64,000 nt of DNA from contig DATIBO010000006.1 in the NCBI GenBank assembly GCA_035457485.1, positions 626,659-690,658 of the forward strand, read 5' to 3'. The translations under genes and the position numbers were made by a program. This document shows positions 4,697 to 59,036 of this stretch, piece after piece (position 1 is the stretch's first letter; each line of letters starts with the position of its first letter). The stretch is from Candidatus Saccharimonadales bacterium. GTDB taxonomy: Bacteria; Patescibacteriota; Saccharimonadia; Saccharimonadales; EFPC-124. The notes below the pieces were generated by a model that worked only from the letters and a program-made list of their open reading frames with translations, made no database searches and had not been told where the DNA came from.

Positions 4697-4722
4697 ATCT
4701 TTCTCCTGGGTGTTGTAGGCCA

Positions 4723-4750
4723 CCGCCACTCTTGGATCGCAAGAGGGCGG
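4723..4750 (-). terminator. GC-rich hairpin between the islet-A ORF and the downstream gene (no U-tract)
   Basis: CCGCC(a)CTCTT ggatcgc AAGAGGGCGG: 10 bp with one bulge. Confidence 0.35.
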
Positions 4751-4794
4751 CAGCCAAATTGACTCAGTGCCGGGGTCGCCGGATGTGAGTCGGA

Positions 4795-5181
4795 CTACAG
4801 GTGACCATCCGCGCCCAACGCACGCCACGGATTGCCTCCGTAGGGCTTGCGAACCAGGGCAGCGTCTGGGGAGTCGGTGCTAGGCTTTTCGAGCTTGCTG
4901 GGGTTCGAGAAGCTGATGACCTGCTCAGCATTCGGCCGGTCCGACGTCTCATCAGGGGTCGGCGGCCGCGAGATCGTGTTGATCCGCTGGATCAGGCGAC
5001 CGATTGCAGCACGCTCGCGATTACTCGGCTCGTCCTGCAACAGGTAGCGCAGGCGCTCGAGCATGGTCGCCAGCTCGTTGATCACACCCAGCGACAGCAT
5101 CTTCTTAGGGTCGCGGTCGGCAGGTACGATCAGATCCAGGCGTGCGACAATCTCGTCGAGAGTAGCGTCGACGGTGTCCAA
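4795..5181 (-). CDS. GC-rich islet A ORF, hypothetical 128-aa protein
   Basis: TTG start with GAGGAG 5 nt upstream. Codon third positions are mostly G/C. The opposite-strand ORFs are Arg-rich shadows. No family recognised. Confidence 0.5.
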   Translation of the reverse strand: MDTVDATLDEIVARLDLIVPADRDPKKMLSLGVINELATMLERLRYLLQDEPSNRERAAIGRLIQRINTISRPPTPDETSDRPNAEQVISFSNPSKLEKPSTDSPDAALVRKPYGGNPWRALGADGHL

Positions 5182-5302
5182 CTTAACTCCTCAAGCACTT
5201 GTAGTTCGATGGCAGTTCAAGTTAGCCATCGCGGGTCACACAGACCCGCCTAAGGAGCAACATCGGCCAGTTGAGCTGCTCCTTAGGCCGGCCAACCAGA
5301 AT

Positions 5303-13129: not shown

Positions 13130-13567
13130 CTAAGAGTTTGAGAAATCGCCCAGCCGAGTACGCTGACCGCAGCACTCTCCGAGCGCCTCGGCGATCACGT
13201 CCTCGACGCGCGAGACCAGCAGCGATACCTGAGCGAAGCTGTACCGGTGGACTTTGCGAGCCTGGAAGTACATCGTCTCGGGCATCTCAACGCCCGCCTT
13301 GATCTCGATCCGAGAACCCTGGGCGATGACAGAGATGTGAAGCGTGCCACTGCCGAACGGGGCAGCTCCATGCATCTTCTGTAGCGTCAGCAGGATTCCA
13401 GCGTCGAACAGGTCGACCGGATAGTCTGCAGCGTCCGCCTGATTGATACTGGAGTACTCGTAGTTCGCGAAGAACTGCTGGAGCGCATTGATGATGCTCC
13501 GCCGCTGATCAGCGCTCAGCGATTGACCCCCTCGGACAAGCACGCTGCATTTTGGCCACACGTTCAC
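13130..13567 (-). CDS. GC-rich islet B ORF, hypothetical 145-aa protein
   Basis: GTG start with AAAAGGAGG 5 nt upstream. TGTTATAGT extended -10 (rc of 13599-13607). G/C-rich third codon positions. No family recognised. Confidence 0.55.
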   Translation of the reverse strand: MNVWPKCSVLVRGGQSLSADQRRSIINALQQFFANYEYSSINQADAADYPVDLFDAGILLTLQKMHGAAPFGSGTLHISVIAQGSRIEIKAGVEMPETMYFQARKVHRYSFAQVSLLVSRVEDVIAEALGECCGQRTRLGDFSNS

Positions 13568-13671
13568 GTGGTCCTCCTTTTGTAGGTGACTTAAACTAAC
13601 TATAACATAAAAACCAAAAAAATAAAGCTAACACCATACAGCAACGTACGCTATACTAAACCTAAAGCAAT

Positions 13672-16122: not shown

Positions 16123-16680
16123 TTACCAGCGATCGCGCCAGCGCTCGACCACGGTCGGGAAGACCTCTTCGAACCCACGACCGTCTTGAAGCCAGGCGAT
16201 TGCCTGTCCGATCAGCAGATCGGCGTGTTCTTGACGGTTGTTGGGTATGCCTTCGGGCACACGGATCTCATTGTAGAGACCCGTTTCCAGAAGACGCCGA
16301 GCGATGGCGCGGCTGTCCACAGTCGTGCCAACATGCCAGGCCTGACCGAATCTGACCAGCCAGTTCAGCAGAAGCTCGCGATCGATCAGGTGGAGTTTGT
16401 GGAACTCATCGAGAAGATCCGAGATCGCCAGAGCCTTAGGTATCGACTGGCGAACCCGCTGCTCCAGATCTCTGGTTTCTCGACCCTGGCGGTACTGAGC
16501 CATGGCCTCCTCGTGAGTCGAGTTCGGGTGGACGACGACATCGACACCATTGAAGTCCGAAACCACCGCGGTCCTGCGATTGCGAGCCTCGAGGAGTAAC
16601 TCCTCTATGTGCTCTTCAATCGGAATCCAGGGGGAAGTTTCGACCCTCGTGGGCCCTTGCTCTTTTCGTCTGAACCACAT
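16123..16680 (-). CDS. GC-rich islet C ORF, hypothetical 185-aa protein
   Basis: ATG with AAAGGAGAGG upstream. TGATAAAGT extended -10 (rc of 16708-16716). The antisense 137-aa ORF is a shadow. No family recognised. Confidence 0.55.
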   Translation of the reverse strand: MWFRRKEQGPTRVETSPWIPIEEHIEELLLEARNRRTAVVSDFNGVDVVVHPNSTHEEAMAQYRQGRETRDLEQRVRQSIPKALAISDLLDEFHKLHLIDRELLLNWLVRFGQAWHVGTTVDSRAIARRLLETGLYNEIRVPEGIPNNRQEHADLLIGQAIAWLQDGRGFEEVFPTVVERWRDRW

Positions 16681-43480: not shown

Positions 43481-44584
43481 TTAGGGTTGAATCCAGAGGT
43501 CGCCGGTAGTCGGATTTGATGGCTGAGACGCCCCATAGCTTACTTTGCGATCAACGTTTGGCGCCGAAATTACACCGCTAGCACTAACCGATGCTAAAAC
43601 CGTGTTATCAGACTGCGTCCATTCAGTAAGATTAGCGCTTTGAGTATTGGATCGTTGCTGTACTCTAAACGGAACTGAGTTATCTGCGGCTGCACGCGAC
43701 CTAAGTTCGCCCTTTTCGTTATGGTAACCCGTACGAATGCCGTTGTAATAAAAAGCCATAGAGTCAGGAGTTGAGCCCGATGCTGTGTAGTTAAGATCAA
43801 TACGCGCAAATCCATTAGTTGTAGCATTGCTTGTAACTGTTCCTGCGTTTTCGCCCGCAAGCAACATCACGCTTGAAGTATCAGCCTTTAGATTCAATGC
43901 TGTTTGGGTAGCGGTGCTAATCGGCTTATTGGCATCACTTGTGTTGTCGACATTTCCTAGTCCAACGTCGCTCTTAGTTAGAGCTAAGTCGGTCTTAAGT
44001 TGAGCAGGCGTGCGACTAGCCCAAGCGCCAGCCTTTCGCTGAATGACATCGTCGTTAGTCGGAGTAAGCGCCGCTATATCAGTAAGGTCAGAGTCGAGCG
44101 GTTGTTTTCCGGCAAGATCAGTTGTTAAGCTGGCGACCTTACTTTGAGCAATATTCGCACTACCCGAGATATTAGTATCTGTAATCGTAGAGTTGGCAAT
44201 TTTTGCGCCAGTTACAGCGCCCGCCGAGATGAGAGGAGCGGCTGCCGTCGTTCCTACTCCGCCCAAGTCGCCGGCTAGTCTAACCAGACCATTTGTACTG
44301 GTTGTGGCATCAGGAGCTCCGCTACTTGCAACGTTATCTACGTAGTCTTTGTTTGCGGCCTGAGTAGCGGTGGTTGGAGTTGGGACAATAGGGGACGAAG
44401 AAAAAGTTTTAACACCGGCGACAGTTTCGCTACCTGTATTATGAACAACTGCACTATCATCGGCCTTATTGGAGACTGCGGAAGGCCGCAAAGTTCCATC
44501 AGAATTGAGCGACACCAAAAGAAAGTCGTTTAAAACACTTCCCCACGTACCGTTATCTGAACCTGGAGTAGGTAGTCTACTCAT
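43481..44584 (-). CDS. Phage tail-fibre-like protein
   Basis: ..LPTPGSDNGTWGSVLNDFL.. and ..VAGVKTFSSSPIVPTPTTATQAANKDYVDN.. are tail-fibre-type motifs. ATG 44584 is preferred over TTG 44596. Confidence 0.6.
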   Translation of the reverse strand: MSRLPTPGSDNGTWGSVLNDFLLVSLNSDGTLRPSAVSNKADDSAVVHNTGSETVAGVKTFSSSPIVPTPTTATQAANKDYVDNVASSGAPDATTSTNGLVRLAGDLGGVGTTAAAPLISAGAVTGAKIANSTITDTNISGSANIAQSKVASLTTDLAGKQPLDSDLTDIAALTPTNDDVIQRKAGAWASRTPAQLKTDLALTKSDVGLGNVDNTSDANKPISTATQTALNLKADTSSVMLLAGENAGTVTSNATTNGFARIDLNYTASGSTPDSMAFYYNGIRTGYHNEKGELRSRAAADNSVPFRVQQRSNTQSANLTEWTQSDNTVLASVSASGVISAPNVDRKVSYGASQPSNPTTGDLWIQP

Positions 44585-44693
44585 TATTGAAACCAACTAA
44601 GCACATACCCCTATTCTACAGTACTAATGCTTATAAGTTAAAGCTTTTTTCAACTTTGGCGCATACAAAGTAATGCGTTAAACTAAACTTAGT

Positions 44694-45777: not shown

Positions 45778-46176
45778 ATGAACAGAGATATATTAGAGTT
45801 TAACAGAAATTTGCCAGCTGGTCGTCGAGAAATTTGCGACTTGCTTAGCACTGAAATCCAGAGCTTTTTTAAAGACTTGCCAGATGCTGAAAATAAATTA
45901 TGGCACGGAGCGCCGGTTTGGTTCTTAAACGGTAACCCTATTGTCGGTTATGATTCCCTAAAGAACTGCGTAAGACTTTTGTTTTGGAGCGGTCAGTCCT
46001 TTAACGAACCCAGTTTACAGCCCGAGGGCAGTTTTAAGGCGGCAGAAGTGCGTTATGAAAACTTAGACAAGATAAAAGTGGACGAGCTGGCAGCCTGGCT
46101 TAAAAAGGCAAAAGATATTCAATGGGACTATAAGAACATAGTTAAGCGCAGGGGAGTACTTGAGCGCCTCAGTTAA
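45778..46176 (+). CDS. DUF1801 (YdhG-like) domain protein
   Basis: 132 aa. ..KLWHGAPVWFLNGNPIVGY.. pattern. Confidence 0.45.
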   Translation: MNRDILEFNRNLPAGRREICDLLSTEIQSFFKDLPDAENKLWHGAPVWFLNGNPIVGYDSLKNCVRLLFWSGQSFNEPSLQPEGSFKAAEVRYENLDKIKVDELAAWLKKAKDIQWDYKNIVKRRGVLERLS

Positions 46177-46268
46177 CAACATTTACATTAAGTAAAATTA
46201 TGCTATAGTTAGTCGGTCATGGAGGAGCGCATGTTTTACGTGCGCCTGACAATCGAAATGGAGTGCAG

Positions 46269-47135
46269 ATGCCTCTCATCGAGGACATCGGGAACTGGAT
46301 CCAGGGAGCAGCGGCCACGTGCCTCGACTTCCTGGGCAAGATCCCGCGCGCTGTGTTCGGCGACGCCGTGGATTCGGAGTACGGCCGATGGGCTGCGACG
46401 CTCGTGTTCATCGCGATCGTCTCTTACGCCATCACCGGCATCCGATCGGTGTCGACGCTGTTCGTCGCCAAGTTCGACCTGGGGTTCAGCCAGGCGAAGA
46501 TCGACGACTACAACGACAAGCGCGGCGAGAACGACGAGAAGTACGTGTTCGACTGGGGCAAGGCGCGACGACAGCAGTCGCGCAGCCTGTCGTTCCTGTG
46601 GCCGGTCGGTCTGATCGCGCTGGGCAGCATGTACTACTGGGTGCGCTACGACCTCACCAGCAAGGGCTACTTCCTGCTGGCGATGGCGTGGTTCGCCTTC
46701 TACCTGCTGGTCATCAAGCCGTGGTGGATCAACACCAAGCTCCGCAGCGACCGCAACCTGGTCGACTCGGGCGTGATCACCCGCGACAAGGCGCCGTACT
46801 ACCACTTCAGCACCCGGCAGGGCATCCAGCACTACATGGGCTGGGGCCTTTACGGGCGCAAGAAGCAGCGCAGCCCGATCTTCATCGGCGGGCTCCGCTA
46901 CGTGCGATGGATCCTGGCGCCGTTCGCCTGGGTCCGCAAGCGCATGATCACGCCGTTCCTGTGGATCTGCGTCCTGGCAGCGGCCTGGATGATCACCGCT
47001 CCGCTCATCGTGTTCTGGCTGGGAACCCGTTTCGACCGGCGCCGCTACTGGCTCCGGCCGCCGTGGGCCCCGGACTACGCGATCGAACCGACGATCCACG
47101 AGTTCGTCGCCACAAGCGACAGCTCGAGCAGCTGA
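46269..47135 (+). CDS. GC-rich islet D ORF, hypothetical 4-TM membrane protein
   Basis: ATG 46269 with GGAG 5 nt upstream (the ORF track uses GTG 46263). Nearly all codons end in G/C. TM segments ..WAATLVFIAIVSYAITGI.., ..LSFLWPVGLIALGSMYYWV.., ..GYFLLAMAWFAFYLLVI.., ..FLWICVLAAAWMITAPLIVFWL... Three other long ORFs here are shadows. Confidence 0.6.
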   Translation: MPLIEDIGNWIQGAAATCLDFLGKIPRAVFGDAVDSEYGRWAATLVFIAIVSYAITGIRSVSTLFVAKFDLGFSQAKIDDYNDKRGENDEKYVFDWGKARRQQSRSLSFLWPVGLIALGSMYYWVRYDLTSKGYFLLAMAWFAFYLLVIKPWWINTKLRSDRNLVDSGVITRDKAPYYHFSTRQGIQHYMGWGLYGRKKQRSPIFIGGLRYVRWILAPFAWVRKRMITPFLWICVLAAAWMITAPLIVFWLGTRFDRRRYWLRPPWAPDYAIEPTIHEFVATSDSSSS

Positions 47136-47154
47136 TCACACTCCTCCAACAACC

Positions 47155-47190
47155 CGTGGCGGCCGAGGCACCAAGCCCTCGGCCGCCACG
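47155..47190 (+). terminator. GC-rich hairpin after the islet-D ORF (no U-tract)
   Basis: GTGGCGGCCGAGG caccaagc CCTCGGCCGCCAC: 13-14 bp, perfect. Confidence 0.5.
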
Positions 47191-47256
47191 CGGCTTCAAA
47201 GAAATTATCATTACACGCGTTTCTTTTTACGAAAGCCGATCTACTCGCTCTGCACT

Positions 47257-49767
47257 TTAATTTGAATAGCTCCGCCTAAGGTACGTTTGGTAGATTGGCG
47301 CAAATTGACACTCAGGAGTAGATTTTGCGCAAACCGAAGAATCAAAGGCAGAATATGATCTAAATATTGTAGATTTATCCGTTAACGTCTGGTCAATAAC
47401 GTTTTCGGGTTTTGATGCAACAGGGTAGCCGACATAGAACTGGGCGGCGGTCTCACCGTATTCTGATTTATACTTTTCAAAAGCTGTAGTGGCTATTTTT
47501 CCCGACTCAAGATGGTCGCTGTGATCAGGTGGCGTGGCATTTTTATCGGTTGATTGCAACCGAACAATCGAAGGAGAGTAGAATTGCATTAACCGACCAA
47601 GTGCATTCGTTAAATCATCCAGCGAGTAAACAGATTGTTTATCCACAGATTTAACAGTTGAGATGACCCCGCGATCAAGCTTAGCTAGACTTTGTTGCTC
47701 AGAAGACTTGAAACCCTGTCCATTGACATTACCATCTGGCAAGCGCATAAAAATCAAAGAAACATTCGGGTTATCTTTGCTTGTCGCGGCTCTAATAAAT
47801 TGTTGATCTCCCAGTTTTATAATATGCGTCGACCAAGATCTAGGACTCACGCCGAGCATAGTTGAATAAGCAGCTATTGCACCTTCTTCGCGCCGCAGCC
47901 AATAAAACTGGTCAGCGCCAGCATCCCCGGCGGTTAAATAAATAGTTCTTACGCAATGCCCAGATTTTATATCGTCGAACGTGGCCGGATTCATAAAAAG
48001 TAAATCATCATCTTGATGGGCTACCACTTGCAAAGTCGTTGATGCCGAGCAAAAAGCATCGTTAAAGTCACTCAATAAAATTGGCTTGATTGTAGCCGCG
48101 TCCTGTCCAACATGCGGGCCATTGGTAATTCCATTGTTATACAGCAACAGCAGCTCTTTAGGCTTATCGACCGTTCCATTAATTACCACACTTTTGCTCG
48201 GGCGACCATAAACTTCGGTAATCGTGTCGAGTCCACACGAAGGAGCGTCCGCGAGCGGGCTTTCTAACGACAGAATATACGCAAAAGAACTCTCTTTTAG
48301 ATCTTTTTGCCAATTTTTGCTCGATAGTAAATCACGCGGCTGAGTACAGTCCATAAGCGGTAAGATCGCCTGATTTTCATTGCTTAAAAGCCTGATCGGA
48401 ACAACACGCCAGTAATTGCCGACCAAAACGTCAACTTTATAAGATTTTAGTGCGCTGACAATTCTTTTATTATAAGTTGCTACTGGGTTTAACGCTTGTT
48501 GTTCACTGCGATAGGTTTTTACAGACGTAGGTAGAGCAATTATAATTCCGGCTAAGATTATAATTCCGGTTATAACTACAATTTTAGGGTTAAGCGTGCG
48601 CCGGCTCAAAACACTAGCAAGCGCCACAAAACCAGCAAAAAGAGCAATTCCTAAATATCTAAAGTCCACCGGGAAGTAGTGGTCACTTACAATATATGAT
48701 CCGATCGCTGCAACAAGCGTCCAGACTAAAATCACAGGCAATGCGTACGTTTTTGGGTCAATTTTAACTTTAAAACTACGCCAAAATACAACCGCCATTG
48801 CCCATATAGCCGCTATGAAAATTAAAAAGTTAACAATGTAACTTGCGATGTAGATCGACCCTGCGCTGCGCCAAACTTGCCCCATTATGTCAGCTAAAAT
48901 TCGTGGATCACTAGCAGGCAACACGCCAAAGTTAACAGATAAAGCCACAAAGACATAAATTACACCGCGCGCTAATTCCTTAAAGTCAGTTATAAACCCA
49001 TACGGGCTTATGCCGGTATGTGATATATCTGTAAACAACTGGAGAACCCATAAAATTATAGTGGCAACAACTATGGCCGCGACAGTTGCAAGCAGCCAGC
49101 GAATAGCGATTCGCATCATCGGCCTAGCGTGCATTACCCAGTAGCAAACCGTAGCCAAAAGCGCACCACCCAGACTTATACTTACAAAAAGACGATCACT
49201 TGCAAATAAAATTGATAGCAACACAACACCAAACCAAAAACTCGATTTTTTATAAGTTCCGCGCAAAATCAAAACAATTGACAAAATATATAGTACATAC
49301 TCAAGATTTCGGGTAGTGATCATAGCCATATTAACTGGCAAAAGTGCGCCATCGTAAGGTTGAGCAGGAACTAAAATTAGGGTAGATGCCAAGGCCAGAC
49401 AAAGCGTGCCAAAAACGAGCATGCGATTTTCGATCCTATATATAAGGTACGCCAACGCAATTACAGTTAAAAGCACACTCATTAGAGTAACCAGCAGGAA
49501 CGCAAGGTTTGTAAAACCTAAAATTTTAGCAAATAAAAACAATGGCCACTTAAATAAAAACGAATGTTGGTAAGGCACAAACGCCTCTTTAAAAGTATCT
49601 GGACTTTCAAACAGGTATGAATTAACTAGTTGATCAGCATTTTGACTATTAAGTTGCGCACCTAAACTTGCCCACAAAATTGTCGTACAAATAAGCACAG
49701 CTAAGCCACCGCCAGCATAAAGTGCTGGTAAAACAAAGTTCTTTAAAAAATTATACTTCTTGTTCAT
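47257..49767 (-). CDS. Fusion protein: polytopic GT-C-like membrane domain plus C-terminal PIG-L/LmbE-family deacetylase
   Basis: About 13 TM in the N-terminal 440 aa. C-terminal ..VVAHQDDDLLFMNP.., ..IYLTAGDAG.., ..PPDHSDH.. (PIG-L zinc motifs). Confidence 0.7.
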   Translation of the reverse strand: MNKKYNFLKNFVLPALYAGGGLAVLICTTILWASLGAQLNSQNADQLVNSYLFESPDTFKEAFVPYQHSFLFKWPLFLFAKILGFTNLAFLLVTLMSVLLTVIALAYLIYRIENRMLVFGTLCLALASTLILVPAQPYDGALLPVNMAMITTRNLEYVLYILSIVLILRGTYKKSSFWFGVVLLSILFASDRLFVSISLGGALLATVCYWVMHARPMMRIAIRWLLATVAAIVVATIILWVLQLFTDISHTGISPYGFITDFKELARGVIYVFVALSVNFGVLPASDPRILADIMGQVWRSAGSIYIASYIVNFLIFIAAIWAMAVVFWRSFKVKIDPKTYALPVILVWTLVAAIGSYIVSDHYFPVDFRYLGIALFAGFVALASVLSRRTLNPKIVVITGIIILAGIIIALPTSVKTYRSEQQALNPVATYNKRIVSALKSYKVDVLVGNYWRVVPIRLLSNENQAILPLMDCTQPRDLLSSKNWQKDLKESSFAYILSLESPLADAPSCGLDTITEVYGRPSKSVVINGTVDKPKELLLLYNNGITNGPHVGQDAATIKPILLSDFNDAFCSASTTLQVVAHQDDDLLFMNPATFDDIKSGHCVRTIYLTAGDAGADQFYWLRREEGAIAAYSTMLGVSPRSWSTHIIKLGDQQFIRAATSKDNPNVSLIFMRLPDGNVNGQGFKSSEQQSLAKLDRGVISTVKSVDKQSVYSLDDLTNALGRLMQFYSPSIVRLQSTDKNATPPDHSDHLESGKIATTAFEKYKSEYGETAAQFYVGYPVASKPENVIDQTLTDKSTIFRSYSAFDSSVCAKSTPECQFAPIYQTYLRRSYSN

Positions 49768-57092: not shown

Positions 57093-57524
57093 TTAGCTAG
57101 AACTAGGTGGAGCTAGAGCTTTATCTAAAAGTCTTAAAAACTGTTCGCGTTCTTGAGCGGTCAAATTCGTCAAACCGCTCGGTTGCGCTAATGAAAGGTC
57201 ACGCAGAATTCGCTGCCGCAGAGTACGGCCTTTTGTAGTTACACTCAGCATTTTAATCCGCCTATCATTAGGATCATCTTTACGCTCCACTAACCCTTGA
57301 GCTTCGAGTCGATCGGCGATACCTGTAACATTAGAGGCGTCGCAAGACATTTGGCACGAAAGCACGTTCATGGGAATAGCGCTGTCAGCTGGCAACAAGC
57401 AAAGGGTTTGCATTTGAGCAGTAGTAAGACCATAGACACCCTCGCTAATACGCGCAAAATCATGACGTGCACGATTTGCTAGCTGTATTAAAAGCCAATA
57501 GATGTTGTCTTCGCCGTTATTCAT
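57093..57524 (-). CDS. MarR-family transcriptional regulator
   Basis: ..LTTAQMQTLCLL.. ..VTGIADRLEAQGLVERKDDPNDRRIKML... Confidence 0.8.
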   Translation of the reverse strand: MNNGEDNIYWLLIQLANRARHDFARISEGVYGLTTAQMQTLCLLPADSAIPMNVLSCQMSCDASNVTGIADRLEAQGLVERKDDPNDRRIKMLSVTTKGRTLRQRILRDLSLAQPSGLTNLTAQEREQFLRLLDKALAPPSSS

Positions 57525-57548
57525 GTCATTATTTTACTTCATAACCTA

Positions 57549-57583
57549 GATAGTTGACAACCTCAACTATCGACGTTTACAAT
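57549..57583. promoter_or_regulatory. Candidate MarR operator overlapping the MFS promoter
   Basis: GATAGTTGA caacc TCAACTATC (57549-57571), a perfect 9-bp inverted repeat. It contains TTGACA (57554-57559). TACAAT lies at 57578-57583. Confidence 0.5.
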
Positions 57584-57614
57584 AATCGTGATTACAAACT
57601 ATACGGGGACATAC

Positions 57615-59036
57615 ATGAAAGAAAAACCTAAGATGGTCTTACTACTACTTGCGTTGTCGCAGTTTTTAGTAGTTCTAGACAGTGCAATCATAAACGTAGC
57701 GCTGCCGGCAATAAAACAGGCGCTTAATTTTGACACTAGTTCGTTACAGTGGGTGATTACAGCCTACATTCTGACCTTTGGTGGCTTTTTGATGCTCGGC
57801 GGTCGAACTGCCGACTTATTTGGCCGCCGCAAAGTACTGGTAGGTGGAATGATCGGCTTTACAGCCTTATCCCTGCTACTCGGCTTAACTCAGGACTCAA
57901 CGACTCTAATTGTTCTGCGCGCTCTACAGGGTCTAACTGCAGCGTTTATGTCGCCGGCGGCCTTGTCGATCTTGCTGACAACTTTCGCCAAAGAAGAAGA
58001 GCGCAACAAAGCATTGAGCATTTGGAGCATAGTTGGATCGGGTGGCGCGGCAGTAGGCGTGTTTTTGGGCGGCCTAATCACACAAACCTTAGGCTGGGAA
58101 TGGTGCTTCTTTGTCAATGTTCCAGTTGGAATTATTACGATCTTGGGTATTTTAAAATATGTCCCAGTCGATCAAAAAGGCACAGCCAGCAAGCATTTGG
58201 ATTTACCAGGCGCAGTTTTAATTACGCTGGGTTTAATGACTTTGGTGTTTGGATTAACCCAGGCTCCAGAGTCAGGTTGGTTTAGCTCTGCCGTTATTAC
58301 TCCATTAGTTGCGAGCGCAGCAATGATAGCACTATTTATCTGGAACGAAACTCGCGCTAAACACCCTCTAATCCCACTGGCCATTTTTAAGCAGCGCAAC
58401 ATCACGGGCGCAAACCTGGTTATGCTGACTTTTGTAGCTGGCGGCCTTGGATTGTTCTTTTTTGCTTCGCTTTTTGTGCAGAACATTTTAAACTATTCGC
58501 CAATTTTAAGCGGTTTGTGCTTTTTGCCGATTCCTATATTAATTGGCGTTGTTTCGACTCATGCTCCAAAGCTAATCGGCCGATTTGGAATTAAACCCTT
58601 GTTAATTGTTGGGGCTGGCCTGGTTGCCCTTGCAATGTTTATTTTAAGCTTCTTAACTGCCGAATCTTCATACTGGCTACATTTACTACCAGCTTTCGTT
58701 CTTATGGGAGTAGGTATGGGCTTGTCGTTTGTGTCCATAACGATTTCGGCAACCGCAGGAGTTCCTCCTGAACAGGCTGGACTCGCATCAGGTTTGATTA
58801 ACACATCTAATCAGGTAGGCGCCGCCTTGGGCGTTGCGGTTTTGGCGGTTGTTGCGAGCGCCACGGCTAATGCAGGTTTAGCTGCTGGGCAAGCCCCAGT
58901 AATCGCCACGATGCACGGATACCAGCAAGCATTCTTTTGGGCCTCAATCTTTTTGATTATTGCTCTGATTATTGCTTCTCTGGTTATACAATCACCAAAG
59001 AATACAAAGTCTAGTGCGCCCATAAGCACTCACTAA
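57615..59036 (+). CDS. MFS transporter, DHA2 (EmrB/QacA, 14-TM) type
   Basis: ..LDSAIINVALPAI.., ..GGRTADLFGRRKV... ATG 57615 is preferred over GTG 57588. Confidence 0.8.
   Translation: MKEKPKMVLLLLALSQFLVVLDSAIINVALPAIKQALNFDTSSLQWVITAYILTFGGFLMLGGRTADLFGRRKVLVGGMIGFTALSLLLGLTQDSTTLIVLRALQGLTAAFMSPAALSILLTTFAKEEERNKALSIWSIVGSGGAAVGVFLGGLITQTLGWEWCFFVNVPVGIITILGILKYVPVDQKGTASKHLDLPGAVLITLGLMTLVFGLTQAPESGWFSSAVITPLVASAAMIALFIWNETRAKHPLIPLAIFKQRNITGANLVMLTFVAGGLGLFFFASLFVQNILNYSPILSGLCFLPIPILIGVVSTHAPKLIGRFGIKPLLIVGAGLVALAMFILSFLTAESSYWLHLLPAFVLMGVGMGLSFVSITISATAGVPPEQAGLASGLINTSNQVGAALGVAVLAVVASATANAGLAAGQAPVIATMHGYQQAFFWASIFLIIALIIASLVIQSPKNTKSSAPISTH

Follow-up and report, generated by a model that had tools for sequence, protein, structure and literature searches.

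A GC-rich one-gene islet of a Saccharimonadales genome carries its own promoter and encodes a new family of predicted membrane proteins

Islet D is a block of about 1 kb in a 64-kb stretch of a Candidatus Saccharimonadales genome (the window, by which we mean the whole 64,000 nucleotides analyzed), and it lies between a DUF1801 gene and a gene with a PIG-L domain. It is a genuine compositional islet with one true protein-coding gene, and it makes up a self-contained one-gene transcription unit. The predicted product is a polytopic membrane protein of a new, small family that has no name in curated libraries. With modest confidence, we consider islet D to be probably an accessory cassette, promoter included, of the flexible gene pool of Saccharimonadales. 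Its most interesting feature is an excess of GC at third codon positions (GC3) that extends across the whole family and has no visible donor.

The GC content of the window is 44.5%. Between the DUF1801 and PIG-L genes, positions 46202-47228 (62.7% GC) are the only stretch in which the 150-nt GC profile exceeds 58%, and this block is the largest of the eight in the window that exceed the same value; judged visually, the GC-rich part extends from about 46212 to 47198, at 63% GC. The 1-kb GC-rich islet that a sequence-only reading had placed between these genes thus corresponds to a real compositional step (62.7% vs. 44.5% GC), and much of what that reading said about the gene holds as well. The frame of 46269-47135 contains one stop only and has GC contents of 54, 46, and 93% at codon positions 1, 2, and 3 (GC1, GC2, and GC3), compared with a GC3 of 38-46% in the genes neighboring islet D in the window. 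Three long overlapping open reading frames (ORFs) of 131, 287, and 313 aa had been regarded as shadows; because their GC peak of about 92% falls on codon position 1 or 2, we agree, and in the comparison of coding statistics that had been proposed as a check the 46269 frame outdoes all of them. Homologs align from the methionine at the ATG of 46269, and the GGAG Shine-Dalgarno (SD) motif claimed for the leader is present at 46260-46263. The codon usage resembles that of very GC-rich genomes, with CCG for 12 of 13 prolines, ATC for all 23 isoleucines, AAG for all 13 lysines, and CTG, CGC, and GCG favored. The perfect GC hairpin described at 47155-47190 has 14-bp arms that are fully complementary, and the proposed four transmembrane (TM) segments are recovered as four hydrophobic segments in the family-averaged hydropathy profile, with a structure prediction that is all helical. 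The parts of the unit are as follows.

46182-46187, + strand: -35-like TTTACA, 6 nt past the DUF1801 stop
46199-46209, + strand: extended -10 element TATGcTATAGT (TRTGn plus TATAGT), at the compositional boundary
46208-46212, + strand: GTTAG, an instance of the conserved GTTRG motif, seen at 10 of 11 distinct loci of the family
46210-46268, + strand: GC-rich 5' leader of about 55 nt with a small stem-loop and GGAG
46227-46245, + strand: leader stem-loop GCGCAUGU/ACGUGCGC; a GC stem of 4-8 bp with other sequence stands at this position in eight other loci
46260-46263, + strand: SD motif GGAG, 5 nt before the ATG of 46269
46269-47135, + strand: 288-aa ORF with ATG start and TGA stop, GC3 92.7%
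47153-47193, + strand: 3' GC hairpin with perfect 14-bp arms (47155-47168 and 47177-47190)

No profile in Pfam, NCBIfam, PHROGs, or PADLOC matched the islet D protein or its relatives. When all 15 members of the A1 alignment were scanned against families at E ≤ 5, scattered single-member matches were obtained, the best of them to Reticulon (E = 0.022). A word-index protein search returned the query itself and one relative; an exhaustive HMMER search over 1.84 billion cluster representatives was used, and it found 17 other proteins. Sixteen of these are true cluster representatives, 27-36% identical to the query with E values from 5e-35 to 2e-4, and one, P0014 (3818 aa), was rejected as a repeat-protein false positive; the family is accordingly defined as P0001-P0018 without P0014. 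The relatives are mostly 220-305 aa long, in a family of about 290 aa, with two shorter fragments, and they share full-length homology and a common length. The remote-homology check suggested by the sequence-only reading therefore gave no named family and no PDB match, but it did yield 16 homologous clusters. Residues D70, P112, W152, Y189, G193, W240, P264, and W266 are invariant in the 15-sequence alignment, and the motifs KAxD, IPFG, LRxWWI, YxxWG, and PxW characterize the family.

AlphaFold2 (AF2), run with the 15-sequence alignment, produced an all-helical model with a pLDDT of 85.7 and a pTM of 0.76. Foldseek with this model found no similar fold in PDB or BFVD, and a profile search of PDB chain sequences returned nothing significant. 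The four hydrophobic segments of the family-averaged hydropathy profile lie at about aa 41-58, 110-123, 136-151, and 229-246. By the positive-inside rule, both large basic loops would be cytoplasmic and the protein would have an N-out/C-out topology. The predicted protein features are listed here by genomic position.

46389-46451, + strand: TM1, aa ~41-61, from hydropathy; AF2 helix 37-71
46584-46721, + strand: TM2-TM3 helical hairpin with a short joining loop, aa ~106-127 and 131-151, from hydropathy and AF2
46722-46952, + strand: long basic loop, about aa 152-228, with a family mean net charge of about +11, the Y189-x3-G193 motif, and R225
46953-47018, + strand: TM4, aa ~229-250, from hydropathy and AF2, followed by the conserved PxW tail (P264, W266)

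A sub-family (P0003, P0007, P0008, P0012, and the protein of locus L021) has a near-identical C-terminal tail, IP(D/R)DTPGDAAAA(x1-3), and the window protein ends in ATSDSSSS; the sub-family tail might serve as a signal for sorting, processing, or degradation. The islet D protein probably acts alone, as it has no conserved partner gene. Our best guess for its role, and the least secure step of the interpretation, is a stand-alone accessory factor of an envelope, protective, or immunity type; for the protective or immunity-type part we rely on the patchy accessory distribution and on the fact that the gene has its own promoter and no partner, traits typical of such factors. In being a single small polytopic protein with its own promoter, a patchy distribution, and no conserved partner, it resembles phage-exclusion and immunity membrane proteins. 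However, it has no sequence or fold similarity to them in PADLOC, PHROGs, Pfam, PDB, or BFVD, and the likeness is circumstantial.

The DNA context of the family was compared at 11 distinct loci (the window, L001, L004, L006-L009, L015, L016, L020, and L021), which come from independent JGI, ENA, Logan, and NCBI assemblies and include a second Ca. Saccharimonadales metagenome-assembled genome (L015). The layout of promoter, leader, ORF, and hairpin is found in 10 of the 11, and where contigs of different samples share a family member, its gene is identical. The flanks vary at every locus, with Alr/Ddl, AlkZ-like, acyltransferase, MFS/MFS, histidine kinase plus NUDIX, and metallo-beta-lactamase-fold genes among the neighbors. 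None of the contigs with readable flanks is uniformly high in GC, and all family contigs are either labeled Saccharimonadales or unlabeled. The GC3 of the family gene is 80-95% at all 11 loci, and at the nine loci with scorable neighbors it lies well above that of typical neighbors (38-74%); these neighbor ranges exclude a few GC-rich neighbors that are near or above the family gene and that, apart from one acyltransferase, lack a Pfam domain. The absence of a compositional jump among homologs at this locus had been named as an outcome that would speak against an insert. The opposite was observed: homologs exist, and the jump exists with them, as the following values indicate.

Window: family gene 93%, neighbors 38-46%
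L001: family gene 89%, neighbors 57 and 64%
L006: family gene 83%, neighbors 46-54%
L007: family gene 87%, neighbors 63-74%
L008: family gene 81%, neighbors 41-56%
L009: family gene 95%, neighbors 67-70%
L015: family gene 93%, neighbors 58-74%
L016: family gene 90%, neighbors 50-52%
L020: family gene 85%, neighbors 62-66%
L004: family gene 83%, no scorable neighbor
L021: family gene 80%, no scorable neighbor

Under the regressions of Muto-Osawa and Lawrence-Ochman, such GC3 values imply a genome of 66-75% GC and a GC1 of 68-73%. The observed GC1 of the family is 53-63%, 10-18 points under the value predicted from GC3, and the GC excess is thus mostly synonymous. The accompanying shift in amino acids is mild: R/(R+K) is 0.44-0.79 in the family vs. 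0.33-0.50 in the neighbors, and GC2 is 40-46% vs. 35-44%. Further GC-rich genes were observed at L001 (152-2987), L006 (3498-3938 and 7093-8434), and L008 (1273-1515 and 4204-5061); they have 58-69% GC, a GC3 of 66-91%, and no Pfam domain, and they stand among neighbors of about 50% GC. Such GC-rich orphan genes therefore seem to be widespread in these genomes. L021 (AACY023323203.1) is a 1.4-kb contig with the same promoter and leader, a canonical U-tract terminator as its sole terminator, and an upstream gene fragment of 67% GC. From its AACY accession we take it to belong to a marine shotgun survey, and several other family contigs are presumably from soil or rhizosphere metagenomes. On a related low-GC contig of Saccharimonadales type (L013), a gene for a DUF397 protein was observed at 13383-13631 with a host-like 37% GC; the DUF397 domain is otherwise typical of Streptomyces.

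The promoter scan of islet D gave TTTACA, a 16-nt spacer, and TATAGT (46204-46209) with an upstream TG, matching 10 of 12 positions. An AT-rich extended -10 element of the TRTGnTATAGT/TATAAT type is found at every family locus that has upstream DNA on its contig; the L004 contig begins within the leader, and the promoter is seen on a second contig with the same gene (L005). Since even members with an identity as low as 27-36% have the element next to the gene, it appears to belong to the unit and not to have been born at a junction. The left edge of the unit would therefore be at or before 46182. The sequence-only reading had described the extended -10 (46201-46209) as created where the insert met its host. 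A promoter-like site is indeed present, but the junction origin is contradicted by the same element at homologous loci. In the window, TRTGnTAnnnT occurs seven times: four copies precede native genes, and the other three lie upstream of the GC-rich genes in islets B, C, and D. It is a putative strong promoter type native to this organism.

Downstream of the promoter, the leaders of the family follow a common order, in which GTTRG, often with (A/T)TGGG after it, comes first, a short GC stem-loop next, and a purine-rich ribosome-binding site last, ahead of the start codon. GTTRG overlaps the -10 box in the window and lies 1-8 nt downstream of the -10 at other loci. The stems themselves differ between loci (GCGCA/UGCGC, GCGCUC/GAGCGC, GUGCUA/UAGCAC, and GCACCCUA/UAGGGUGC), and their covariation is modest: four of six pairs change on both sides, with a score of 0.32 vs. 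0.20 in shuffled alignments, a score that 12 of 500 shuffles reached. Folding of single leaders does not significantly exceed that of their shuffled versions (z between +0.4 and -2.4), so it is the short stem alone that is supported. Rfam 15 gave no match in 46204-46268 even at E ≤ 10, and in the rest of the unit sub-threshold noise. A conserved small upstream ORF starting at a leader ATG was considered and rejected, since its frame and length, compared by eye, vary by locus. An 8-nt perfect complement (AGTGCAGA/TCTGCACT) was also observed between 46262-46269, in the region of ribosome-binding site and start, and 47249-47256, in the spacer immediately ahead of the PIG-L stop; the match, which belongs to a 17-nt inverted repeat of 76%, is probably due to chance.

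At the other end of the unit, the islet D hairpin, with arms that are 100% complementary, has a predicted ΔG of -35 kcal/mol and a z-score of -6.7. It is not followed by a U-tract, and the terminator scan did not call the site, although the GC stem is present. A strong GC hairpin is found at 10 family loci, 10-85 nt past the stop codon, with 5' arms alike in sequence (RTGGYRGCCGAR); when these 10 hairpins are aligned, 14 of the 15 consensus pairs have changed in a compensatory way. At L007, L009, and L015 a separate small stem with a T-run, i.e., a canonical terminator, follows 20-45 nt after the big hairpin. The one at L015 has a preceding A-run and could work in both directions. The presence of this separate terminator suggests that the big hairpin is not itself the terminator, and that it may instead be a protector or stabilizer of the 3' end or have another role.

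The sequence-only reading had also taken a 7-bp direct repeat, AAATTAT, as a mark of insertion. Both copies are present where it had placed them.

46195-46201, + strand: left AAATTAT, within promoter spacer and TRTG motif, both of which recur at homologous loci
47202-47208, + strand: right AAATTAT, in the AT-rich spacer before the PIG-L stop

As a sign of insertion, however, the repeat is not supported, because it is a chance-level match and its left copy lies within the conserved promoter and hence inside the unit. AAATTAT occurs 32 times in the window vs. 21 expected, and among comparable AT-rich 40-nt flank pairs about 1 kb apart, 10.8% share some 7-mer. No consistent flanking repeat was found at 10 family loci, where the longest shared k-mers are 6-8 nt long and inconsistent in position. 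The unit contains no transposase ORF, and the annotated genes near the islet include neither an integrase nor a transposase. A transposable element with target-site duplication was considered and rejected, given the lack of equivalent repeats at the 10 loci and of a transposase ORF. The 64-kb window has no tRNA genes, and the islet shows the marks of neither a tRNA-linked nor an integrase-borne island.

Around islet D in the window are DUF1801, a membrane protein, a tail-fiber-like protein, and GtrA/PIG-L, with the GtrA gene preceding the PIG-L gene. The two genes that bound the islet are convergent.

45778-46176, + strand: DUF1801 gene, stop codon 46174-46176
47257-49767, - strand: 836-aa fusion protein with a C-terminal PIG-L domain, convergent with the DUF1801 gene

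The tail-fiber-like gene (43481-44596, - strand, 371 aa), 1.6 kb from the islet, matches the phage lower-baseplate domain BppL_N and a DUF5907 repeat, and no further phage genes were recognized near it. A PIG-L scan of genome contigs found no relative; PIG-L orthologs reach 46% identity at most, and each relative has another gene downstream of PIG-L (KhpB/YidC, VanZ, or Ddl). A divergent pair of a MarR gene and an EmrB/QacA-type MFS gene is located at 57093-59036 in the window and at 3045-5041 in L009 (MFS 50% and MarR 39% identical). The family gene directly adjoins this pair in L009, and in the window the two are 10 kb apart.

Three other islets of the window, A-C, have a single gene each, with a GC3 of 67-78%, a GGAG-type ribosome-binding site, and a GC hairpin downstream.

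4707-5290: islet A, ORF 4795-5181 on the - strand, 128 aa
13068-13578: islet B, ORF 13130-13567 on the - strand, 145 aa
16075-16690: islet C, ORF 16123-16680 on the - strand, 185 aa

Nothing was found for islets A-C in Pfam, NCBIfam, PHROGs, or PADLOC, and islets B and C, which have TRTGnTAnAGT promoters, had no match in the phage set or IMG/VR. The promoters of islets B (13599-13609, - strand) and D (46199-46218, + strand) share TATGnTATAGTTAGT and, a few bases on, GTCA. This likeness exceeds the -10 consensus and takes in GTTAG, a motif that is kept in members of the islet D family.

Among known systems, islet D may be set beside horizontally acquired single-gene islets, with which it shares a sharp compositional step, an accessory gene between convergent core-like genes, a patchy family, and a context that differs by locus. 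It differs from them in having a promoter and leader that move together with the gene, in lacking an integrase, a tRNA site, and a target duplication, and in showing no donor lineage. Whereas foreign and orphan genes usually exceed the host genome in AT content, the gene of islet D and the other domain-less islet genes exceed it in GC content. Integron cassettes are likewise compact one-ORF units with a conserved end hairpin (imperfectly so in sequence), and the GTTRG motif at the 5' end of the unit resembles the GTTRRRY core. However, members of the islet D family are solitary and have their own promoter, and the perfect GC stem lacks extrahelical bases. The cassette interpretation in the integron sense was rejected, since, by eye, just 4 of 10 hairpins have the inverse core CYAAC nearby, no arrays occur, and no intI-like gene is among the annotated neighbors. 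With intrinsic terminators and with the I-shaped terminators that lack a U-tract, the latter being known from Actinobacteria, islet D shares a strong GC stem-loop soon after the stop codon. It departs from intrinsic ones in lacking the U-tract and in the separate canonical terminator that L007, L009, and L015 add.

In the history that we favor, the cassette would have been kept or passed around within the flexible gene pool of Saccharimonadales and would have been placed in a gap of about 90 nt between the convergent DUF1801 and GtrA-PIG-L genes. Its promoter would have arrived with it and not been created by the insertion. Entry was probably via DNA uptake and illegitimate recombination, as neither a target-site duplication nor a recombinase signature is seen; uptake is a plausible route because natural competence has been shown in Saccharibacteria, which are transformable (PMC10633639). 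More weakly, a long-lived monocistronic mRNA might result from the GC3-rich body in combination with the stem-loop at its 5' end and the hairpin at its 3' end. Several points weigh against this history. The insertion at the DUF1801/PIG-L spacer is deduced from composition and lack of synteny only, and differing neighbors do not prove mobility because synteny in the clade is generally poor. A taxonomic label is attached to just 2 of the 11 loci (the window and L015), both Saccharimonadales. A cassette circulating among genomes of 44-59% GC should not exceed all of them in GC. Furthermore, the hairpin covariation arises partly by construction, because the hairpins were chosen as hairpins before alignment, and the proposed function draws no support from any homology or fold match in the families, PDB, and BFVD searched.

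A rival origin, which builds on the sequence-only reading, is a recent promoterless import from a high-GC donor, such as an actinobacterial host or its phage, with a chance promoter at the junction and AAATTAT as target duplication. The classic high-GC codon usage and the sharp compositional boundaries fit such an import, as does the 66-75% GC donor implied by the regressions, a range that is that of soil Actinobacteria, and so does the hairpin without U-tract, hairpins of this kind being common in Actinobacteria. Cultivated Saccharibacteria moreover grow on Actinobacteria and take up DNA (PMC10633639). Nevertheless, we consider the import rather unlikely, as GC1 is 10-18 points below its prediction from GC3, AAATTAT is at chance level, and promoter and leader are kept in members 27-36% identical, which independent junction promoters would not yield. 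Nor did the search of 1.84 billion cluster representatives place the family on any uniformly high-GC contig, and no member was found in INPHARED phages or PLSDB plasmids (tblastn) or in IMG/VR (protein and sub-family alignment scans). For a transfer from an actinobacterial host, one would look for a uniformly high-GC family locus with readable flanks or for a match in a phage or plasmid, and neither was found. It is unlikely, too, that islet D is an old vertical gene of Saccharimonadales in which nothing was inserted and extreme GC3 is held by a gene-specific force, such as selection on mRNA stability or structure, or local biased repair or conversion. Such a gene would account for a GC-rich stretch with the same extent as the transcribed region, which begins immediately past the -10 box and closes with the hairpin, for the native-type promoter, for the conserved 5' and 3' stem-loops, and for a GC excess that is mainly synonymous, and the poor synteny of the clade could account for the differing neighbors. 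But the family is very patchy (16 clusters vs. more than 130 for the neighboring PIG-L gene), its amino acids are also GC-shifted in R/(R+K) and GC2, and unrelated domain-less genes with the same GC excess are in the same genomes, which looks like a shared origin and not like selection on a single gene; there is also no known mechanism for a 50-point GC3 step with edges so sharp.

An assembly or binning artefact, by which a high-GC piece was misjoined into a Saccharimonadales contig, might be suspected in a short-read metagenome-assembled genome such as the source of the window. We give it almost no weight: the block is interior to an 889-kb contig and has host-like flanks, continuity and conservation run across the supposed junction from the AT-rich promoter through the leader into the ORF, and a chimera is very unlikely because the independent JGI, ENA, Logan, and NCBI assemblies give the same continuous architecture. 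A further and quite improbable idea extends the reading of islet D as a cassette. The TRTG promoter, structured leader, ORF of 80-95% GC3, and hairpin could define a class of domain-less single-gene cassettes of soil Saccharimonadales that belongs to an unsampled GC-rich mobile element shuttling at the interface of epibiont and host, or that is built for expression in, or exchange with, a high-GC host, in which case the islet D protein may act at or in the host envelope. Expression directed to a host would fit because of the host-like codons and the hairpins without U-tract. Coding composition agrees with the 66-75% GC typical of the presumed actinobacterial hosts and departs from that of the genomes in which the cassettes lie, and the extended -10 promoter is of a type that could be recognized by actinobacterial sigma-A as well.

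Taken as the probable accessory cassette of the Saccharimonadales gene pool, islet D adds a new membrane-protein family, confidently folded in prediction and without relatives in curated libraries, that so far is found on Saccharimonadales-type contigs only. The islets of this genome are seen as organized units, with native promoters, conserved leaders, and 3' hairpins, and not as random foreign scraps. The family-wide GC3 excess is not accounted for by a simple model of recent import and subsequent amelioration, given the conserved regulatory parts and the lack of any visible donor. If it is true that the composition reflects traffic with a high-GC host or an unsampled mobile element, this would bear on how ultrasmall epibionts gain and retain accessory genes, a process that is now open to experiment, as Saccharibacteria are transformable (PMC10633639).

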